64,000 nt of DNA from Actinomycetota bacterium (GTDB taxonomy: Bacteria > Actinomycetota > Actinomycetes > S36-B12). Where the stretch lies: the NCBI GenBank assembly GCA_016870195.1, contig VGCC01000005.1:19126-83125 (forward strand). Reading direction: 5' to 3'. The notes under the pieces are model-generated. The model did not search any database. It worked only from the letters and a program-made list of their open reading frames with translations, and was not told the DNA's origin. Below, one piece after another: positions 1,995 through 60,979 of the stretch. Position 1 is the stretch's first letter. Each line of letters begins with the position of its first letter. The translations under genes and the position numbers were made by a program.

Positions 1995-2558
1995 ATGGCG
2001 ACAACGAACGACCTGAAGAACGGCATGGTGCTGAAGATCGATGGCCAGTTGTGGGCCGTGGTGGAGTTCCAGCACGTCAAGCCGGGCAAGGGCGGGGCGT
2101 TCGTGCGCTCCAAGCTTAAGAATGTCCTCTCCGGCAAGGTTGTCGATCGCACCTTCAATGCGGGCGTCAAGGTCGAGACGGCCACAGTGGATCGCCGTGA
2201 CATGCAGTACCTCTACAAGGACGGCGACGACTGGATCTTCATGGACACCACGTCCTACGACCAGGTGTCGGTCCCCTCAGCGGTGGTGGGGGACAGCTCG
2301 GATTACCTCTTGGAAAACCAGGTGGCGCAGATCTCGATGCACGAGGGTTTCCCGATCATCGTGGAACTGCCCGCGTCGGTCGAGTTGATCATCACCTATA
2401 CCGAGCCGGGCCTTCAGGGTGACCGGTCTACCGGTGGCACGAAGCCGGCCATGCTCGAAACGGGGGCGGAGATCCAGGTGCCGCTCTTCATTGAACCGAA
2501 CACCAAGGTCAAGGTGGACACGCGCGACGGTTCCTATCTGGGCCGCGTCAACGACTAG
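1995..2558 (+). CDS. efp: elongation factor P
   Basis: It has the [15 protein letters not shown] loop and is 187 aa long. Its stop overlaps the nusB start by 1 nt. Confidence 0.97.
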
Positions 2559-2983
2559 TGTCCGCGCGATCCAAGGCCCGTAAGCGGGCCCTCGATGTCC
2601 TCTTCGAGGCGGACAGTAGGGGCGTCCCGATTCCTAGCGTTCTGGCCGAACATGTCCGGCGCCGTCGGGATGAGGGCTCACCGGACTTGAACGAGTACAC
2701 GGTCGCCCTGGTCGAGGGTGTGTCAAGCAATCAGGCCACCATCGACGACCGAATCGAGAATTCGGCCGAGGGGTGGTCGCTCGACCGGATGCCGGACGTT
2801 GATCGGGCGATCGCCCGCGTTGCGGCGTACGAGATCCTCTTCGTGGAAGACGTGCCCGATGCGGTGGCAATCTCCGAGGCGGTCGACCTCGCCACCGACC
2901 TTTCGACCGCCGAATCTCCAAGGTTCATCGCGGGTCTGCTGCATGCCATCTCGAACCAGAGACCTACACCCGAAGCGAGCTAG
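2558..2983 (+). CDS. nusB: transcription antitermination factor NusB
   Basis: It begins ARKRALDVLFEAD, carries the RMPDVDRAIARVAAYEILF core, and lies in the efp-nusB synteny. Confidence 0.93.
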   Translation: MSARSKARKRALDVLFEADSRGVPIPSVLAEHVRRRRDEGSPDLNEYTVALVEGVSSNQATIDDRIENSAEGWSLDRMPDVDRAIARVAAYEILFVEDVPDAVAISEAVDLATDLSTAESPRFIAGLLHAISNQRPTPEAS

Positions 2984-3057
2984 TGCCCCGGGTGGGATTC
3001 GAACCCACACTGGACGGTGTTTGAGACCGCTTCCTCTGCCGGTTGGGATACCGGGGC
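2984..3057 (-). tRNA. tRNA-like gene with anticodon CAA (Leu) and A73, but class-I length (5-nt variable region). It may be an atypical tRNA or a decayed tRNA-Leu.
   Basis: The reverse complement folds as GCCCCGG/CCGGGGC acceptor (7 bp), T arm GTGGG-TTCGAAT-CCCAC, and anticodon arm GCGGT-CTCAAAC-ACCGT. The D stem is weak (TCCC/AGGA) and no CCA is encoded. Confidence 0.6.
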
Positions 3058-3098
3058 GCTGCGCCAAGGGTAGCCAGATCACCGCGTAGCGTTGCGGC

Positions 3099-3704
3099 GT
3101 GGAGACCAGTGCGGTGCGGATCGTCGTCGTCGAGGACGAGTCGATCATCCGGATGGACCTGGTCGAGACCCTCCGCGAACTCGGGTACCTGGTCGTCGGC
3201 GAAGCGGGGGATGGCGCCGCCGGGATCGAGGTCGTGCGCGCGACCAACCCGGACCTGGTCTTCATGGACGTGAACATGCCCGTGATGGACGGCATCACCG
3301 CGACCCGCGCGATCGTGGGAGAGGACCTCGCCGCGGTCGTGATGGTCACGGCCTATGCGCAACGGTCGGTCGTGGACGAGGCAGTGGCGGCCGGAGCCGC
3401 CGGGTACATCGTCAAGCCATTCAGCAGCTCGGATCTCGCGCCCGCGATCGAGGTAGCCGTGGCGCAGCGACTTCAGCTGCGGGCGCTGCGGGGGCAGGTC
3501 GCGTCCCTGGCCGGGCGGGCCCAGTCCCGGTCCCTGGTGGAGCAGGCGGTCACCGTCCTGGGGGAGTCCCAGGGCCTCGGCGAGCCCGAGGCGTACGCGC
3601 TCCTGAGGCGGGCGGCCATGGATCAGCGCGTCACCCTGCCCGAGGCCGCCGCCCTGATCCTCGAGCGGATTCAGGGGGGAATATCACAAAAGGGTCACGA
3701 ATAG
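3099..3704 (+). CDS. pdtaR: response regulator with ANTAR RNA-binding output domain (PdtaR-like)
   Basis: The receiver domain shows VVVEDE...DLVFMDVNMPVMDG...KPF. The C-terminal ANTAR segment shows LVEQAVTVL...EPEAYALLRRAAMDQRVTL. The start codon is GTG. Confidence 0.88.
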   Translation: METSAVRIVVVEDESIIRMDLVETLRELGYLVVGEAGDGAAGIEVVRATNPDLVFMDVNMPVMDGITATRAIVGEDLAAVVMVTAYAQRSVVDEAVAAGAAGYIVKPFSSSDLAPAIEVAVAQRLQLRALRGQVASLAGRAQSRSLVEQAVTVLGESQGLGEPEAYALLRRAAMDQRVTLPEAAALILERIQGGISQKGHE

Positions 3705-3752
3705 GACCCGAACCCCGCACCAGATTTCGCCCCTTCACGAGGGTGGCCGTAG

Positions 3753-3793
3753 GCTGTCGGGACTGCGACGGCACTCGTCGTCGTTTCGTATGT
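3753..3793 (+). promoter_or_regulatory. two mutually exclusive hairpins in the SBP leader, a possible antiterminator/terminator pair
   Basis: Hairpin A (3753-3772) has a 7-bp stem and loop GGACTG. Hairpin B (3765-3781) has a 6-bp stem and is followed by CGTTTCGTATGT. They share 3765-3772. The U-tract is poor and the canonical ANTAR dual-hexaloop motif is absent. Confidence 0.25.
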
Positions 3794-3806
3794 CCAAGGA
3801 GAATGC

Positions 3807-9826: not shown

Positions 9827-12445
9827 GTGGTGTCCGAGCGGCGGTTGCTCCTCATCGATGGGCACTCGATGGCGTATCGCGCATTCTTTGCGCTTCCGGT
9901 GGAGAACTTCTCGACCACAACAGGACAGCCGACGAACGCCGTCTTCGGGTTCACGTCGATGGTGATCAACATGCTCAAGGACGCTGCTCCCACGCACGTG
10001 GCCGTGGCCTTCGATGTCAGTCGGAAGTCCTTCCGGACGGATCGGTTTCCGGACTACAAGGGCACGCGCAGCGCCACGCCGCCCGAGTTCAAGGGGCAGG
10101 TCGAGCTGATCGACCAGGTGCTCGATGCCCTGGGGATCGCCACGTACCGCGCGGAGGGATACGAGGCCGACGACATCATCGCGACATTGACCGCCCAAGC
10201 GCTCGACGAAGGATTCACCGTCGAGATCGTCACGGGTGATCGCGACTCGTTCCAACTCGTGAGTGATTGCGTCACAGTTCTCTACCCCCGCAAGGGTGTC
10301 TCAGACCTTGCGCGGATGACGCCGGACTCGGTGGAGGAGAAGTACGGGCTCCTGCCCGAGCAATACCCGGACTTCGCGGCACTGCGTGGGGATCCCAGTG
10401 ACAACCTCCCGGGTATCGCGGGAGTGGGGGAGAAGACCGCCGTCAAGTGGTTGACCACCTATGGGAGTTTGGCCTCCCTTATCGACCATGCCGACGAAAT
10501 CGGCGGCAAGGTGGGCGAGTCCCTCCGGGCTTCCGTCGGCCAAGTGCTGCTGAACCGGGAACTCACCCAGTTGTTGACGGATGTCCCGTTGCCGAGTGGA
10601 CCCGACTCCTGCTCATGGGCCGGGTGGGATTCGGGATCGGTCGACGCGATCTTCTCCGCCCTGCAATTCACGGCGCTGCGGGATCGGCTGACGAAGTTGC
10701 CCCGCACGGGACAGGCGACGGTCCCCGCCGCCGAGGCACCGGCCGTTGACATCGACGTCGCGCATGTGTCCGGGAAGGAATTTGTCCACGGGTGCGGGGA
10801 AAGCGTGGCCATCGTGGCGACGAGCGACCTCTCCCGGGCCGCGGCATTTAATGCTGCCCGCTCGATCGTGACCGACGATGTCCGCTCGATCGAGTCCGTT
10901 CTGTCATCGATCGACATCACGAAGACCATGCACGATGCGAAGGCGTGCGCCCGGGTGCTGCTTGATCATGGGTCGGAACTGCTGGGTCTCGGTTTCGACA
11001 CGGCGCTCGCGGCCTACCTGGTGATGCCGGGCCAGCGTTCGTATGCCCTTCCGGATGTGGAGCAACGTGTCCTCGGTCGCGTCCGGGGGGAACTCGGTGG
11101 CGAGGGGCAGTTGGACCTGCTGGGCGGTGGCGACGCTGATGACCAGGTGCTCGGTGCGGATGCCGCCGCGGTGGCGGACCTCGAGTCGAGTCTTTGCCCA
11201 CGTCTGGCGGAGGACGGTCTGCTGTCACTCCTGGTCGATGTGGAACAGCCGGTTGCGTTGGTGCTGGCGCAGATGGAACACACGGGCATATGTGTGGATC
11301 GCCCGGGCCTCGAGGCGCTGTCACGTGCGTTCGGTGATGCGATGCGCGCGTGTGAGTCCAGTGCGGAGAAGATCGTCGGGCGCCCGTTCAATATGGGTTC
11401 GCCAAAGCAACTCCAGGAGATCCTCTTCGGCGAGAGAGGTCTGCCGAGGACGAAGAAGATCAAGACGGGCTACACCACCGATGCCGAAGCCCTCCAGGGC
11501 CTATACGAACAGACCGAGGACCCGCTGCTTGCGGAGATCTTGGCCTGGCGTGACCGCAGCAAGTTACGCCAGACCGTGGATGGGCTCATCCCGCTGATCG
11601 CATCGGATGGACGGATCCACACGACCTTCCACCAGACCGTGGCGGCGACCGGGCGGCTGTCCAGCAGCGATCCCAACCTGCAGAACATCCCGGTGCGGAC
11701 GGATGCAGGCCGCAGCATTCGGCGTTGCTTCGTCGTCGGCGAGGGATTTGAATCTCTGATGACGGCCGACTACAGCCAGATCGAGCTGCGGATCATGGCG
11801 CACGTCTCCGAGGACGCGGGACTGATCAAGGCATTCCAATCGGGTGAGGATCTGCACACGACTGTCGCCAGTGCCGTCTTCGGTGTCGCCCCCACGGCCG
11901 TGGATGCAGAGATGCGGCGCAAGATCAAGGCCATGAGTTACGGCCTCGCTTATGGCCTGTCGCCATTCGGCCTCTCACAGCAGTTGCGGATCACTCCGGC
12001 CGAGGCGCAACAGTTGATGGATGAGTACTTCCAGCGGTTCGGTGGGATCCGCAACTACCTCGCCGGAGTGGTCGACACCGCTCGTGCGAGCGGGTACACC
12101 GAGACGATGTTCGGTCGGCGGCGCTACCTCCCGGATCTGCAACACGACAATCGACAGCGTCGCGAGATGGCGGAGCGGATGGCACTGAACGCACCCATCC
12201 AGGGGACTGCTGCGGACATCGTGAAGATCGCCATGCTGGGTGTGGCCGACGCGCTTGCCACCGCGAATCTGGCGTCCCGACTCCTCCTTCAGGTGCATGA
12301 CGAACTCGTCGTCGAGGTGGCCCCGGGCGAGGCCGCGGAGGTCGAGAGGATCCTGCGCGAGCGGATGGGTGCGGCGGCCAGCCTGCGCGTGCCCCTGGAG
12401 GTCACCGTGGGAGTGGGGACGAATTGGGACGAAGCCGCCCACTAG
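9827..12445 (+). CDS. polA: DNA polymerase I
   Basis: The 5'-nuclease N-terminus reads LLLIDGHSMAYRAFFALP. Polymerase motifs are DYSQIELRIMAH, RRKIKAMSYGLAYG and LQVHDELVVE. The start is GTG 9827 (or 9830). The upstream part of the track ORF is antisense to the thioesterase and rejected. Confidence 0.95.
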   Translation: MVSERRLLLIDGHSMAYRAFFALPVENFSTTTGQPTNAVFGFTSMVINMLKDAAPTHVAVAFDVSRKSFRTDRFPDYKGTRSATPPEFKGQVELIDQVLDALGIATYRAEGYEADDIIATLTAQALDEGFTVEIVTGDRDSFQLVSDCVTVLYPRKGVSDLARMTPDSVEEKYGLLPEQYPDFAALRGDPSDNLPGIAGVGEKTAVKWLTTYGSLASLIDHADEIGGKVGESLRASVGQVLLNRELTQLLTDVPLPSGPDSCSWAGWDSGSVDAIFSALQFTALRDRLTKLPRTGQATVPAAEAPAVDIDVAHVSGKEFVHGCGESVAIVATSDLSRAAAFNAARSIVTDDVRSIESVLSSIDITKTMHDAKACARVLLDHGSELLGLGFDTALAAYLVMPGQRSYALPDVEQRVLGRVRGELGGEGQLDLLGGGDADDQVLGADAAAVADLESSLCPRLAEDGLLSLLVDVEQPVALVLAQMEHTGICVDRPGLEALSRAFGDAMRACESSAEKIVGRPFNMGSPKQLQEILFGERGLPRTKKIKTGYTTDAEALQGLYEQTEDPLLAEILAWRDRSKLRQTVDGLIPLIASDGRIHTTFHQTVAATGRLSSSDPNLQNIPVRTDAGRSIRRCFVVGEGFESLMTADYSQIELRIMAHVSEDAGLIKAFQSGEDLHTTVASAVFGVAPTAVDAEMRRKIKAMSYGLAYGLSPFGLSQQLRITPAEAQQLMDEYFQRFGGIRNYLAGVVDTARASGYTETMFGRRRYLPDLQHDNRQRREMAERMALNAPIQGTAADIVKIAMLGVADALATANLASRLLLQVHDELVVEVAPGEAAEVERILRERMGAAASLRVPLEVTVGVGTNWDEAAH

Positions 12446-12557
12446 GGCGCCGGCCTGGGCTCGGGCCGATTTCCCGGGTGCCCCCGGGGTGCCGTAGCCT
12501 TGCCAGGCTCAGCAGCCGCTGGGCATCCCTACTCATAGTTATCGGATCCCCTACTTC

Positions 12558-14009
12558 ATGACCGCTCCTACGACCAGCCCCGCACAGGTAGCCGTAAACG
12601 ACATCGGCTCGGCGGAGGACTTCCTCGCAGCAATCGACGCCACCATTAAGTACTTCAACGACGGAGACATCGTCGAGGGCACCATCGTCAAGGTCGACCG
12701 CGACGAGGTGCTCCTGGATATCGGCTATAAGACCGAAGGCGTCATCCCCTCCCGTGAACTCTCGATCAAGCACGACGTAGACCCCACCGAGGTCGTCAAC
12801 GTCGGCGACCGGGTCGAGGCTCTTGTTCTCCAAAAAGAGGACAAGGAGGGACGGCTGATTCTGTCCAAGAAGCGTGCGCAGTACGAGCGCGCGTGGGGCG
12901 ATATCGAGCGCGTGAAGGAATCAGACGGCGTGGTTGAGGGCCAGGTGATCGAGGTCGTCAAGGGCGGACTCATCCTGGATATCGGCCTCCGCGGCTTCTT
13001 GCCGGCCTCGCTGGTGGAGATGCGCCGGGTTCGTGATCTCCAGCCCTATGTCGGCAAGACCCTCGAGGCGAAGATCATCGAGCTCGACAAAAACCGCAAT
13101 AACGTCGTGCTGTCCCGTCGCGCATGGCTCGAGCAGACCCAGTCCGAGGTGCGTCACACCTTCTTGAACAACCTGCAAAAGGGTCAGATCCGCAACGGCG
13201 TCGTATCGTCGATCGTCAACTTCGGCGCATTCGTCGATCTCGGTGGGGTGGACGGCCTCGTCCACGTGTCGGAACTGTCCTGGAAGCACATTGACCATCC
13301 CGCCGAGGTGGTCGAGGTCGGCCAGGAGGTCACCGTCGAGGTTCTCGACGTCGACATGGATCGCGAGCGCGTCTCGCTGTCGCTCAAGGCGACCCAGGAG
13401 GATCCTTGGCAGCACTTCGCTCGCACGCACCAGATCAACCAGGTGGTACCGGGCAAGGTCACGAAACTCGTTCCCTTCGGAGCTTTCGTTCGTGTTGACG
13501 AAGGCATTGAAGGACTCGTCCATATCTCTGAGTTGGCCGAGCGGCATATCGAGATGCCTGAGCAGATCGTGCAGGTCGGCGATGAGCCGTATGTCAAGGT
13601 CATCGATATCGATCTCGAGCGCCGCCGCATCTCCCTCTCGCTCAAGCAGGCGAATGACTCCGCCGACGCCGTTGCTAGCGTGGAGTTCGATCCCTACCTG
13701 TACGGCATGGCACCGGCATTCGATGATGCTGGCAACTACATCGGCCCCGAGGGCTTCGACCCGGAGACGGGTGAGTGGAAGGCCGGATTCGAAGGCCAGC
13801 GTGCCGCGTGGGAGCAGGAGTACGCCGAGGCGCATGCCCGGTGGGAGGCCCACCGCAAGCAGGCAGCAGATGCTCGCGAAGCTGACCAGGAGGCTGCGGT
13901 GGAGTCCGGCGATGCCACCAGTTTCTCCTCCAGCGGTGCCGATGATGAGTCGTCCCTGGCATCTGACGAGAAGCTGCAGGCTCTGCGCGACAAGCTGACA
14001 TCGGACTGA
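12558..14009 (+). CDS. rpsA: 30S ribosomal protein S1
   Basis: It has four S1 repeats (for example VNFGAFVDLGGVDGLVHVSELS and LVPFGAFVRVDEGIEGLVHISEL) and an acidic C-terminus. Confidence 0.97.
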   Translation: MTAPTTSPAQVAVNDIGSAEDFLAAIDATIKYFNDGDIVEGTIVKVDRDEVLLDIGYKTEGVIPSRELSIKHDVDPTEVVNVGDRVEALVLQKEDKEGRLILSKKRAQYERAWGDIERVKESDGVVEGQVIEVVKGGLILDIGLRGFLPASLVEMRRVRDLQPYVGKTLEAKIIELDKNRNNVVLSRRAWLEQTQSEVRHTFLNNLQKGQIRNGVVSSIVNFGAFVDLGGVDGLVHVSELSWKHIDHPAEVVEVGQEVTVEVLDVDMDRERVSLSLKATQEDPWQHFARTHQINQVVPGKVTKLVPFGAFVRVDEGIEGLVHISELAERHIEMPEQIVQVGDEPYVKVIDIDLERRRISLSLKQANDSADAVASVEFDPYLYGMAPAFDDAGNYIGPEGFDPETGEWKAGFEGQRAAWEQEYAEAHARWEAHRKQAADAREADQEAAVESGDATSFSSSGADDESSLASDEKLQALRDKLTSD

Positions 14010-14018
14010 CCGTCGTAG

Positions 14019-14042
14019 GCCGGTCATCCGCCCACGACCGGC
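14019..14042 (+). terminator. hairpin after rpsA
   Basis: GCCGGTC-atccgcccac-GACCGGC forms a 7-bp stem 10 nt after the stop codon. Only a weak T-rich tail (CTCTTC) follows. Confidence 0.4.
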
Positions 14043-14055
14043 GTAGGCTCTTCAA

Positions 14056-14652
14056 GTGCTGCGCATTGCTGTGACGGGCGGAATCGGTGCCGGCAAGAGC
14101 ACCGTGGCCCGAATGCTGGCGGATCGCGGTGCGGTCGTGATCGATGCGGACGCGATCTCCCGTGCCCTGGTGGAGCCCGGTGCCCCGGGCCTCGGGCCGC
14201 TCGTGGCCGAATTCGGGCCCAGGATCCTGCGCGAGGACGGGGCGCTCGATCGGGGCGAATTAGCCTCCCTCGCCTTCTCGGAAGTCGAGGGGACGCGACG
14301 GCTGAACGCGATCATGCACCCGCTCATCCGGACGGAGGCCGAGCGCCGGGTGGCCGAGGCGCAGGAGGCGGGTGCCTCCGTTGTCGTCTACGACATGCCC
14401 CTGCTGGTGGAAACCGGCCAGCAGGATCTGGTGGACCTGGTCCTGGTCGTTGATGCACCCGAGGAGCAGCAGGTTCTCCGGGCCTCGCGCGCGTTCCCCG
14501 AGGCGGACGTCCGGCGCCGCATGGCCGCGCAGGCGACCCGCGAGGAACGTCTCGCCGTCGCGGACGTGGTCATAGACAACGCCGGGAGCACCGCGCAGAC
14601 GCAGCACCAGGTGGACGATTTCTGGGACCGACTCGTGACTGAGCGACCATGA
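14056..14652 (+). CDS. coaE: dephospho-CoA kinase
   Basis: It begins [13 protein letters not shown] (P-loop) and lies in the rpsA-coaE-uvrB synteny. The start codon is GTG. Confidence 0.92.
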
Positions 14653-16703
14653 CCCGACCCCTGACGGAGATCCCCCGGGCAGGTGCCCCGTTCGAGGTCG
14701 TGTCGGAGTTCAGTCCGGCCGGTGACCAGCCGGAGGCCATCGACGTGATCGTCCGGCGCATCGAAGCAGGGGAGAAGGAGGTCGTTCTCCTCGGTGCCAC
14801 GGGAACCGGCAAGTCCGCCACCACTGCGTGGCTGGTGGAAAGGCTCCAGCGTCCGACCTTGGTGATGGCTCCGAACAAGACCCTCGCTGCACAGTTGGCG
14901 ACCGAGTTCCGAGAACTCCTTCCGAACAACGCCGTGGAGTACTTCGTCTCGTACTACGACTATTACCAACCCGAGGCGTACGTCCCACAAACCGACACGT
15001 TCATCGAGAAGGACTCCTCGATCAACGAGGAGGTGGAGCGCCTACGGCACTCCGCCACGAATTCCCTTCTCACGCGCCGAGACGTTCTCGTCGTGGCAAC
15101 GGTCTCCGCCATCTACGGATTGGGCACCCCTCAGGAGTACGTGGATCGCATGGTGCGCGTCCGGGTCGGCGAGGAGATCGAACGCAACGACCTGCTCCGC
15201 CGGCTGGTGGGCATCCAGTACACCCGTAACGATGTCGCCTTCACTCGCGGCACGTTCCGGGTGCGAGGCGACACGGTCGAGGTGTTTCCGGTGTACGAGC
15301 AGCATCCGGTGCGGATCGAGATGTTCGGCGATGAAGTCGAGCGGGTCATGACCCTGCATCCGCTCACCGGCGAGATCCTCTCGGATGACCCGGAGGTCTA
15401 CATCTTCCCGGCTACGCACTACGTCGCGGGTCCGGAGCGCATGGAGCGGGCCATCAGCGATATCGAAGACGAGTTGGTCGTCCGGGTCGCTGAACTCGAG
15501 GGCCAGGGGAAGTTGCTCGAGGCGCAACGGATCAAGATGCGCACGTCCTACGACCTGGACATGATGCGCAATCTCGGCTTCTGCTCCGGCATCGAGAACT
15601 ACTCCCGGCACATCGACGGCCGGGAACCGGGGTCGGCGCCGAACTGCCTCCTGGACTACTTCCCCGAGGACTTCCTGCTAGTAATCGACGAGTCTCATGT
15701 CACCGTCCCTCAGATCGGTGCCATGTATGAGGGAGACCGAAGCCGCAAGGGAACGCTCGTCGAACACGGCTTCCGATTGCCGTCAGCCATGGACAACCGC
15801 CCGTTGCGATTCGCTGAATTCGAGGAACGGATCGGTCAGACCGTGTACCTGTCGGCGACCCCCGGCTCCTTCGAGTTGACCAAGGTTCAGGGAGATGTGG
15901 TCGAGCAGGTCATCCGGCCCACGGGACTCGTGGATCCCCTCGTGGTCGTCAAGTCCACGGACGGGCAGATCGACGATCTCATGCATGAGATCCGGATGCG
16001 AGTCGAGCGCGGGGAGCGCACCCTGGTCACCACCCTGACCAAGCGCATGGCCGAGGATCTGACCGACTATCTGGGCGAGAACGGCGTTCGGGTCGAGTAC
16101 CTCCATTCCGAGGTAGACACACTTAGGCGCGTCGAGTTGCTCCGCGAACTGCGGATGGGTGTTTTCGATGTGCTGGTGGGAATCAACCTGCTCCGTGAGG
16201 GGCTCGATCTCCCCGAGGTGTCCCTCGTGGCGATCCTCGACGCCGATAAGGAGGGATTCCTGCGCTCCGAAACGTCCTTGATCCAGACCATCGGACGTGC
16301 GGCACGTAACGTGTCGGGAGAAGTCCACATGTACGCCGACACCGTCACCCCGTCGATGCGGCGCGCCATCGACGAGACGAATCGGCGGCGTGCCAAGCAA
16401 GTTGCGTACAACGAGGAACGGGGGATCGATCCCCAGCCCCTGCGCAAGAAGATCGCCGACATCACGGACCTTCTGGCACGAGAGGATGCGGACACCCGTG
16501 AAGTCCTCGAGCGTGAGGGTTCTATCGCTACGCGGGCTCGCAGCGCTGCCGGAGCGGACCTTGCCGCATTGATTGAGGAGTTGACCGAGCAGATGCATGC
16601 CGCGGCCGCGAGTCTTCAGTTCGAACTTGCCGCTCGGATCCGTGATGAGGTGGCGGAGTTGAAGAAGGAGTTCCGTGGGATGCGCGAAGCCGGAGCAGGC
16701 TGA
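14649..16703 (+). CDS. uvrB: excinuclease ABC subunit B
   Basis: It has [10 protein letters not shown], the DESH box (VIDESHVT), helicase motifs, and the C-terminal UVR domain ([17 protein letters not shown]). Confidence 0.97.
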
Positions 16704-57903: not shown

Positions 57904-57939
57904 ACGGATTCGGCTAGACTTAGCTCGCTGCTTGAACCC

Positions 57940-58125
57940 GGGCGGGAGAGAACTGCACCAGCAGTCGCCGAAGGAGCAATCTCCCCGACAACCTCTCAGG
58001 CACAGGGACCGTCCGGGTAAGGCACCTCTGGAAGGCGAGACTTTGGTCTCCACCGACGGGGAAAGCCGCGAATGCGGTGAAACTCTCAGGTCGCGCAGTG
58101 CGCGGGCAACAGAGGGGGAGTGGTT
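57940..58125 (+). promoter_or_regulatory. tandem glycine riboswitch (two aptamers) controlling gcvP
   Basis: Aptamer 1 shows GGGAGAG...TCGCCGAAGGAGCAA...CTCTCAGGCACAGGGAC. Aptamer 2 shows CTCTGGAAGG...CCACCGACGGGGAAAGCC...CTCTCAGG...AACAGAGG. These match the GGAGAG / CACCGAAGGGGCAA / CUCAGG-GGAC glycine-aptamer consensus blocks. Confidence 0.85.
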
Positions 58126-58147: not shown

Positions 58148-60979
58148 ATGGAATTCGTCGGTCGTCACATAGGTCCACGTGATGCGGATGTCATCGACAT
58201 GGCACAGCAACTCGGTTTCGAAGATGCCGACGCACTCATCGCGGCGGTCGTTCCCGAGGTCATCGCCTGGACGAGCGGACTCGATCTCCCCGCGCCCCTC
58301 TCGGAGCCCGAGGTCACCAGGCGCCTCCGCGAGCTCGCATCAGCCAACACCGTCACGGTCCCGATGATCGGGCTCGGCTACTACGCCAGCCACACGCCGG
58401 CTGTCATCCGACGCACCGTGCTCGAAAACCCCGCTTGGTACACGGCGTACACCCCGTACCAGCCGGAGATCTCCCAGGGCCGGCTCGAGGCCCTCCTCAA
58501 CTTTCAGACCCTCGTCGAGGACTTGACAGCGTTGCCCATCGCCGGATCGAGCCTGTTGGACGAGCCCACTGCAGTGGCCGAGGCGATGGCCCTGGCGGTG
58601 CGCTCCACTGGGCGCGACCGGCTGCTGGTCGACTGTGATGCCCATCCTCAGACTCTCGCCGTGCTCAGCACCCGAGCGGAGCCGATCGGGGTGGAGATCG
58701 TGGTCGCGGATCTTGCAGGGCAGGGGCCCGCAGGTGAGTTCGCCGGCGTTGTGGTCGGCTATCCGGGGAGTTCCGGGCAGATCCGTGACATCCGCGAGGT
58801 GATCGCCCTGGCCCGCGATGGCGGTGCGTTGGCCATCGTGACCACGGATCTCCTCGCCCTCACCCTGCTCACCCCACCGGGGGAGTGGGGGGCGGACATC
58901 GTGGTGGGTTCCGCCCAACGCCTCGGTGTGCCGATGGGCTTCGGGGGACCCCATGCGGGTTTCATTGCCGTGCGGGCCGGGCTCGAGCGAAGCCTGCCCG
59001 GGCGCCTGGTTGGGGTCAGCGTCGATGCCGACGGGGCACCGGCGTACCGCCTGGCCCTGCAGACCCGCGAGCAGCACATCCGCAGGGAGAAGGCCACGAG
59101 CAACATCTGCACGGCCCAGGTTCTCCTCGCCGTCATGGCGAGCATGTACGCGGTCTACCACGGGCCCGAGGGACTCACCGCGATCGCGCAACGAGTCGCG
59201 CAGTCCGCCAGCAGGCTGGGGGAGGCCCTGAGCTCGGCGGGATTCGCGCTCGTTCACGATGACTACTTCGACACGCTTCATGTGCACGCGCCCGGCCGGG
59301 CGCGCGAATTGTGGGAAGCATGCCGGTCGAGGGGAATCACGTTGCGGCTGGTCGACGCTGACACCATCGGAATCAGCGTCGATGAGACCACCACGGCGGA
59401 GCATGTGGCCGTGGTTGCGGACGTGTTCGGTGCGCAGATCGGTGCTGCCGAGCACACAGCGATTCCGATTGAGCTGACGCGTACGTCGCCGTTCCTGACG
59501 CATCCTGTTTTCCATCAGCACCGTAGTGAGACATCCATGTTGCGCTACATCCGTCGTCTCTCCGATCGCGATGTGGCCCTCGACCGGTCGATGATCCCGT
59601 TGGGCTCCTGCACGATGAAGTTGAATGCAGCGACGGAGATGGAGCCGGTCACGTGGATGGAATTTGCGCACATGCATCCATTCGCACCGCTGGAGGACTC
59701 GGCCGGATATCGGGAAATGATCCGGGACCTCGAGGCGTGGCTCTGCGAGGTCACCGGGTACGACGCGATCTCACTGCAGCCGAATGCCGGTTCGCAGGGC
59801 GAGTTTGCAGGATTGCTTGCGATCCGCGGATATCACCGTTCACGTGGTGATGATCAGCGGGATGTCTGTCTGATTCCCAGCAGCGCACACGGCACGAATG
59901 CTGCAAGTGCGGTCATGGTGGGGATGACGGTTGTGGTCGTGCAGTGCGACGAGCAGGGGAATGTCGATGTCGCCGATCTTCAGGTCAAGATCGATGCGCA
60001 CGCTGATCGGCTTGCTGCGCTGATGATCACCTATCCATCGACTCACGGGGTCTTCGAAGAGGCTGTCGCGGACATCTGTGCGCGCGTCCACGCTGCAGGC
60101 GGGCAGGTGTATGTCGATGGTGCCAACCTCAACGCGCTCGTTGGACTTGCGAAGCCCGGCGCATTCGGCGCGGACGTCTCGCACCTGAACCTGCACAAGA
60201 CGTTCTGCATCCCCCATGGCGGCGGGGGACCGGGGGTGGGTCCCGTGGGGGTGCGCGCCCACCTGGCGCCGTTCCTCCCCGGGCACCCGTTGGTGCCGGA
60301 GGCCGGTCCGATGGGCCGCGGTCACATCAACGGCGGAGTGGGTCCCGTGAGCGGAGCGCCCTGGGGGAGCGCCGGAATCCTTCCGATTCCCTACGCCTAC
60401 ATCGCGATGATGGGGGGAGAGGGCCTGACCCGTGCGACCACGGTGGCCATCCTGAACGCCAACTACGTCGCGCACCGGCTACGCGACCACTACCCGATCC
60501 TGTACGCCGGTGATCGCGGGCTGGTGGCCCACGAGTGCATCCTGGACATTCGACCCATCACGGCTCGATCCGGCATCTCGGTCGATGACATCGCCAAGCG
60601 GCTCATCGACTATGGCTTCCATGCTCCGACGATGAGCTTCCCGGTCGCAGGGACCCTGATGGTGGAGCCGACCGAGAGCGAGGACCGCGCGGAGCTGGAC
60701 CGCTTCTGCGACGCCATGATCGCGATCCGGGGGGAGATCGCCCGGGTGGAATCGGGTGAATGGCCGGCGGATGACAATCCCCTGGTTCACGCCCCGCATA
60801 CCGCCGCGAGTGTCGTCGGGTCCTGGTCGCACCCGTACAGCGCTTCGGAGGCGGCCTTTCCGGGGACGGTGAACCCTGCGGACAAGTACTGGCCTCCGGT
60901 GCGGCGCATTGACGGTGCCTACGGGGATCGGAACCTGGTCTGTTCCTGCCCGCGGCCTGAGGAACTCGCCGCCACATAG
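58148..60979 (+). CDS. gcvP: glycine dehydrogenase (aminomethyl-transferring), P protein, single-chain
   Basis: It begins [10 protein letters not shown], shows SNICTAQ and the PLP lysine context [19 protein letters not shown]. The upstream track-ORF extension covers the riboswitch and is rejected. Confidence 0.97.

Follow-up and report, generated by a model that had tools for sequence, protein, structure and literature searches.

A type I tRNALeu(CAA) gene beside a pdtaR-like ANTAR regulator in an uncultivated freshwater actinobacterium, very probably its ordinary reader of UUG

The window (the whole 64-kb stretch of actinobacterial DNA that was analysed) contains a single tRNA gene according to ARAGORN, namely a tRNA-Leu(caa) that lies between nusB and a gene for a pdtaR-like response regulator (Table 1). 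The plus strand upstream carries aroB'-aroQ-pepQ-efp-nusB, while the genes beyond the ANTAR gene encode a Liv-type branched-chain amino-acid ABC transporter and a 4HBT thioesterase, followed by polA, rpsA and uvrB/A/C; leuS is absent from the 64-kb window. Contigs identical to the window's occur in JGI freshwater metagenomes. The ANTAR ORF in its longest form begins with a GTG at 3099 and spans 201 aa, and the JGI gene call starts at 3114. Hence, the distance from the 5' end of the tRNA (3057) to the start of the regulator is either 41 nt, the value given by an earlier reading made from the sequence only, or 56 nt with the JGI start. Elsewhere in the window, a tandem glycine riboswitch (RF00504, 74.7 and 35.9 bits) occupies 57933-58122 directly upstream of gcvP (which ends at 60979), and this layout is textbook.

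Table 1. Features at the tRNALeu(CAA) locus, in window positions
Feature	Position	Strand	Basis and remarks
nusB	2558..2983	+	Pfam PF01029; convergent with the tRNA; its stop codon TAG (2981-2983) abuts the tRNA 3' end
Encoded C74	2983	-	Sequence; overlaps the G of the nusB TAG stop (+ strand)
Type I (short variable loop) tRNALeu(CAA), positions 1-73	2984..3057	-	ARAGORN; Rfam RF00005, 53 bits; model R1, 87.5 bits; covariation in alignment A1
Putative -10 box TACCCT (TANNNT)	3067..3072	-	10-15 nt upstream of the mature 5' end; inferred from positional conservation
pdtaR-like response regulator, receiver + ANTAR domains	3099..3704	+	Pfam PF00072 + PF03861; divergent from the tRNA

The tRNA is recognised as such by two independent programs. 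The Rfam/Infernal match to RF00005 aligns 2984-3057(-) with the complete model (positions 1-71 of 71) at 53.0 bits and E=1.5e-8, which is 24 bits above the gathering score of 29 and not at the level of a pseudogene, and ARAGORN reports a tRNA-Leu(caa) at 2983-3057(-), the encoded C74 included. The cloverleaf comprises a 7-bp acceptor stem (GCCCCGG/CCGGGGC), a D stem of 3 bp plus C13.A22, the D loop AACCGGCAG, a 5-bp anticodon stem that includes G27.U43, the anticodon loop CUCAAAC with U33, A37 and the anticodon CAA, a 5-nt variable loop (CCAGU) with U48, a T arm with a 5-bp stem (GUGGG-UUCGAAU-CCCAC), and A73 as the discriminator base. The 13:22 pair is the only non-standard one flagged by the RF00005 match. 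The reverse complement of 2984-3057 reads letter for letter as the sequence-only reading gave it, and the stems, the TTCGAAT T loop, U33/A37, the CAA anticodon, A73, the 74-nt length and the 5-nt variable loop described there are all found again in the sequence, by ARAGORN and by RF00005. Canonical type II tRNAs possess a long variable arm of >10 nt; here only 5 nt separate the anticodon and T stems, and neither ARAGORN nor Infernal returned an alternative fold with a long variable arm. The minimum-free-energy fold of the isolated 74-nt transcript is not a cloverleaf (z = -2.1), a result that is uninformative for a tRNA. Non-cloverleaf folds of this kind are common among unmodified tRNA sequences.

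At the 3' end, C74 is the only nucleotide of CCA encoded at the window locus. The encoded tail differs among relatives, from C in the window to CC in L013 and L014 and the full CCA in L019 and L020. Since CCA is only partly encoded in the window, the rest must come from a CCA-adding enzyme. On the 5' side, a scan for the sigma-70 consensus returned no promoter for the tRNA. In diverged relatives a TANNNT hexamer (TACCCT, TAACCT, TAATGT) recurs at a constant distance from the tRNA while the surrounding sequence differs, and this positional conservation in the sequences suggests a conserved -10 box.

The locus was then compared with contigs from related organisms, whose NusB proteins are 83%, 81%, 72%, 64% and 60% identical to the window's within an overall range of 60-97%. 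The nearest named NusB relatives are MAGs of Nanopelagicales and Acidimicrobiia, and the closest relative at NCBI is GCA_041443025.1 (93% NusB identity). The same tRNA(CAA) is present in every fetched contig whose sequence extends past nusB; L018, where it is missing, stops 231 nt after nusB. When the region between nusB and pdtaR is aligned, as the sequence-only reading had proposed, the 74 nt are identical across these relatives save for one C-to-U change in the D loop, whereas both flanks diverge freely. It should also be noted that in several relatives nusB is separated from the tRNA/ANTAR pair by additional genes (L017 at 10418-11191, L019 at 10433-15403, L020 at 10433-13315, and GCA_041443025.1), whose products include an IS-type transposase, a sedolisin-like protein of 677 aa and hypothetical proteins. 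The adjacency of nusB and the tRNA is thus lineage-specific. None of the relatives with insertions contains att-like repeats of the 3' half of the tRNA, so nothing marks the tRNA as an integration site. An 18-mer with 2 mismatches inside polA was considered as such a repeat and judged to be a chance match.

To place the tRNA in a wider family, one genome per GTDB species was scanned with the pattern CTCAAA-N14-GGTTCRANTCC, which matched at least 120 loci. Among the matches listed, at least about 84 loci belong to Actinomycetota, each with a single tRNA-Leu(caa) of 73-75 nt. The carriers include Streptomyces, Kitasatospora, Actinacidiphila, Micromonospora, Salinispora, Mycobacterium, Amycolatopsis, Pseudonocardia, Nocardioides, Cellulomonas, Bifidobacterium, Planktophila and other Nanopelagicales, and Acidimicrobiales. 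The exact window sequence is found again in two other MAGs among these matches (L030, L108). A class-I size had been called unusual for this tRNA, and this stands for bacteria in general; within Actinomycetota it does not, as the scan shows the type I CAA isoacceptor to be the standard form there. Of the other tRNA matches listed, most belong to large tRNA gene arrays in other phyla; four non-actinobacterial MAGs (L034, L097, L110, L125) have a short tRNA(CAA) gene standing alone, and a dozen or so listed loci have no tRNA at the pattern match. At L121 (JBCECL010000009.1), labelled as a Brevundimonas sp. MAG, the type I tRNALeu(CAA) matches that of Cellulomonas L116 in every base and has an ANTAR regulator next to it; the contig is probably actinobacterial and was placed in an alphaproteobacterial MAG by a binning error.

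The distinct sequences from Actinomycetota, 62 in number, were collected into an alignment (A1) and scored on the cloverleaf and the 15:48 tertiary pair. Standard pairing is observed in 98.8% of cells, compared with 79.2% after shuffling and at most 51% with slid partners. Changes on both sides that preserve pairing, which the sequence-only reading had named as a feature to look for, occur in 19 of the 21 pairs, and the covariation score is not reached by any of 500 shuffles. At the Levitt pair 15:48, 53 sequences have A:U and 9 have G:C, with 0 mismatches. U8, A14, C13 and A22 are invariant in all 62 sequences. Other columns of A1 are invariant by construction: the scan pattern prescribed C32, U33, CAA and A37 in the anticodon loop, a variable loop of 5 nt, and the greater part of the T loop. 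The D stem had been listed as an oddity on account of its weakness; this description falls away, given that the same architecture is found in E. coli leuX and that C13 and A22 are kept in 62/62 family members. In addition, a covariance model (R1) was built from 9 Streptomycetaceae sequences only, in order to avoid circularity. On this model the window tRNA scores 87.5 bits and the remaining actinobacterial members score 70-89 bits, against 40.4 bits for E. coli leuX and <55 bits for most of ~150 other tRNAs from control arrays. The window tRNA is thus well formed, is under strong purifying and compensatory selection, and forms a single aligned family with the Streptomyces genes.

The meaning of the codon that a CAA anticodon reads can be followed in the window itself. 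TTG occurs 25 times in ten window genes (~8% of Leu codons), and in orthologue alignments with seven related contigs Leu is the aligned residue at TTG in 92% of cases, at CTG in 81%, at CTC in 86% and at CTT in 78%. Since TTG aligns with Leu like the other Leu codons do, UUG means leucine in this organism. Nothing suggests reassignment or programmed mistranslation at UUG.

A tRNA of this type is already known, as the type I tRNALeu(CAA) of Streptomyces coelicolor was characterised in 2019 (Fan, Huang, Ji & Wang, NAR 2019 47:6369, PMC6614811). That organism has five tRNALeu isoacceptors, of which four are type II and the CAA one, its only CAA isoacceptor, is type I, with the variable loop A44-C45-A46-G47-C48; a single LeuRS charges both types, with a kcat/Km of 6.25 s-1 uM-1 for the CAA and 14.2 for the UAA isoacceptor (PMC6614811). 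E. coli LeuRS is unable to charge the type I tRNA, and recognition by the Streptomyces enzyme is permitted by the C-terminus of its leucine-specific domain (L732/G733) (PMC6614811). Leucylation requires the U8:A14 pair together with C74 and a variable loop that is no shorter than 5 nt and includes nucleotide 48, while A73 is no identity element (PMC6614811). Attempts to knock out the gene failed, which the authors attribute to the 6706 UUG codons in the genome; some Streptomyces are without a type I gene, and type I tRNALeu is called rare (PMC6614811). Given that the Streptomyces orthologue cannot be leucylated without C74, most of the genomes compared here must depend on the CCA-adding enzyme for maturation of the tRNA. 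The Streptomyces members of A1 show the published ACAGC loop and C48; our link to the S. coelicolor tRNA rests on this published variable-loop sequence and the named positions rather than on a full-length alignment. Judged by its sequence, the window tRNA has all the elements reported to be necessary for leucylation, namely U8, A14, the encoded C74 and the 5-nt loop CCAGU, which ends in U48. In the literature searched, no description of a bacterial type I tRNALeu was found besides that of Fan et al. (PMC6614811), and neither a tRNA identity review nor a paper on M. tuberculosis LeuRS mentions it.

These data bear on the explanations that the sequence-only reading had left side by side, namely a functional Leu-type tRNA that lacks the variable arm, a tRNA of altered identity, a decayed tRNA-Leu or old integration-site scar, and a tRNA-like RNA element. 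A decayed gene, in the sense of a pseudogene that has lost its variable arm or is the scar of a past integration, could account for the incompletely encoded CCA and for the extra genes, a transposase included, that separate nusB from the tRNA 3' end in relatives. It has virtually no likelihood when set against stems that are all perfect, an RF00005 score well over the cut-off, a near-invariant sequence in diverged relatives with compensatory changes throughout the phylum, and the lack of att-like repeats of the 3' half in those relatives that have insertions; moreover, the orthologue is functional and resisted deletion (PMC6614811). Near-invariance and covariation, together with the normal meaning of UUG and the biochemistry of the orthologue (PMC6614811), speak equally against a tRNA-like element.

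The idea of an altered identity, in which a class-I tRNA would bring an amino acid other than Leu to UUG by mistranslation or reassignment, draws on a size that is atypical for bacterial tRNALeu and on the failure of E. coli LeuRS to charge the Streptomyces orthologue (PMC6614811). We regard it as extremely unlikely, since TTG aligns with Leu as well as CTG or CTC does, the D arm and core are tRNALeu-like, and the S. coelicolor LeuRS leucylates the orthologue with the efficiency given above (PMC6614811). What is left is the functional Leu-type tRNA, which conservation, covariation, the R1 score and the biochemistry of the orthologue (PMC6614811) all support. The locus is thus very probably a working tRNALeu(CAA) of type I, orthologous to the experimentally characterised tRNA and serving as the ordinary reader of UUG in Actinomycetota.

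The neighbouring regulator raises a separate question. Among the matches listed, an ANTAR regulator adjoins the tRNA in 72 of the 84 actinobacterial loci, with a gap of 7-418 nt (median 132), and nine of the loci without such a neighbour are cut at an edge. The two genes are divergent in 57 of these matches and co-oriented (tRNA, then regulator) in 15, mostly from Nanopelagicaceae, whereas the flank opposite the ANTAR gene is not conserved. The description of the locus as a synteny junction is therefore apt for the nusB side, which varies among relatives, but not for the tRNA-ANTAR pairing, which is kept across the phylum. Between the ANTAR gene and the livK-like binding-protein gene, there is a weak terminator-like hairpin at 3765-3781. 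The livK leader (window 3705-3806) was considered as an ANTAR target and set aside, as its fold is no better than those of shuffled sequences (z = +0.37).

Besides decoding, the tRNA might also play a part in regulation, in connection with the adjacent pdtaR-like ANTAR gene and with the branched-chain amino-acid transporter, either by co-regulation through a shared promoter region or with the tRNA or pre-tRNA serving as an ANTAR ligand. Such a role is consistent with a pairing that, among the matches listed, persists despite inversion of the tRNA in 15 loci and despite the differing other flank, and with the Liv-type transporter located downstream in the window. Adjacency alone, however, can be frozen ancestral synteny. 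Known ANTAR targets are paired hexaloops, unlike the loops of the tRNA, which have 7 nt. The livK leader is without significant structure, and no ANTAR RNA family in Rfam reaches its gathering score within the 64-kb window. The literature searched likewise offered no support: no paper linking pdtaR and tRNA-Leu was found, and a paper on actinobacterial ANTAR-RNA makes no link to tRNA. An added regulatory role is thus very unlikely. The more general proposition that the adjacency of tRNA and pdtaR reflects functional coupling rather than frozen synteny is also unlikely, if less remote; such coupling could take the form of shared expression control or of an interaction of PdtaR with the tRNA or its precursor, and the Liv transporter would possibly connect it with leucine or branched-chain amino-acid status. 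The conserved linkage to pdtaR is, in our view, a small lead.

Taken together, the following picture is proposed for the type I tRNALeu(CAA). In this uncultivated actinobacterium from freshwater, the gene would encode an elongator tRNA whose variable loop has 5 nt and which is orthologous to the type I tRNA of S. coelicolor. In this genome it would presumably be expressed from the TANNNT -10 box just upstream, and its CCA end would be completed post-transcriptionally. By analogy with S. coelicolor (PMC6614811), the organism's own LeuRS is expected to charge it with leucine. The charged tRNA would then read UUG codons as Leu, in this genome presumably as their sole dedicated reader.

On this account the locus is a normal translation gene of an essential type, and neither a relic nor a recoding device. 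The supposedly rare type I tRNALeu(CAA) emerges as the standard UUG reader across many Actinomycetota, from Mycobacterium and Bifidobacterium to freshwater Nanopelagicales and Acidimicrobiales, a phylum-wide spread that has probably been under-appreciated, though the genes are routinely annotated as tRNA-Leu. If the type I form is standard across so many Actinomycetota, actinobacterial LeuRS must generally recognise both tRNA types. This dual recognition is relevant to drugs that target LeuRS and to orthogonal actinobacterial LeuRS/tRNA pairs.

Other short leucine tRNAs occur in gene arrays. Arrays of 14-35 tRNA genes within 8 kb (L031, L039, L042, L047, L049, L052, L066, L075, L081-L083, L096 and others) are hosted by Acidobacteriota, Planctomycetota, Verrucomicrobiota, Chloroflexota, Cyanobacteria, Lachnospiraceae and one Actinomycetota MAG. 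Their class-I tRNALeu genes resemble the window tRNA in length (73-78 nt) and in the D arm (GUAGCCCAAYNGGCAGAGGC), and the caa and taa tRNAs of L066 and the gag tRNA of L047 reach 72-77 bits on the Streptomycetaceae model R1. Unlike the window tRNA, they come with several Leu anticodons (caa, taa, tag, gag), are clustered, and have no adjoining ANTAR regulator. A census of the array tRNAs by a D-arm regular expression proved too crude to tell isotypes apart and was not used as evidence. Human mt-tRNALeu(UUR) is likewise a leucine tRNA with a short variable loop, although it differs in its anticodon and in its degenerate mitochondrial core. Human mitochondrial LeuRS charges both tRNALeu types of S. 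coelicolor, whereas the S. coelicolor LeuRS rejects the mitochondrial tRNA (PMC6614811).

The type II tRNA leuX of E. coli and the window tRNA have in common the CAA anticodon, A73, A26, a 3-bp D stem, a 13.22 pair that is not Watson-Crick, and the D loop AAYCGGYAG; the gross difference lies in the variable arm, which has 13 nt in leuX and 5 nt in the window tRNA. Relative to Streptomyces type I tRNAs, the D loop of the window tRNA is 1 nt longer, its 15:48 pair and variable loop are A15:U48 and CCAGU instead of G15:C48 and ACAGC, and its pairs 10:25 and 11:24 are U:A and C:G, where Streptomyces has G:C followed by C:G or U:A. Shared by the window tRNA and the type I tRNALeu of S. coelicolor are the CAA anticodon, the 5-nt variable loop, U8:A14, G18G19, A73, the 3-bp D stem and a length of 73-74 nt.
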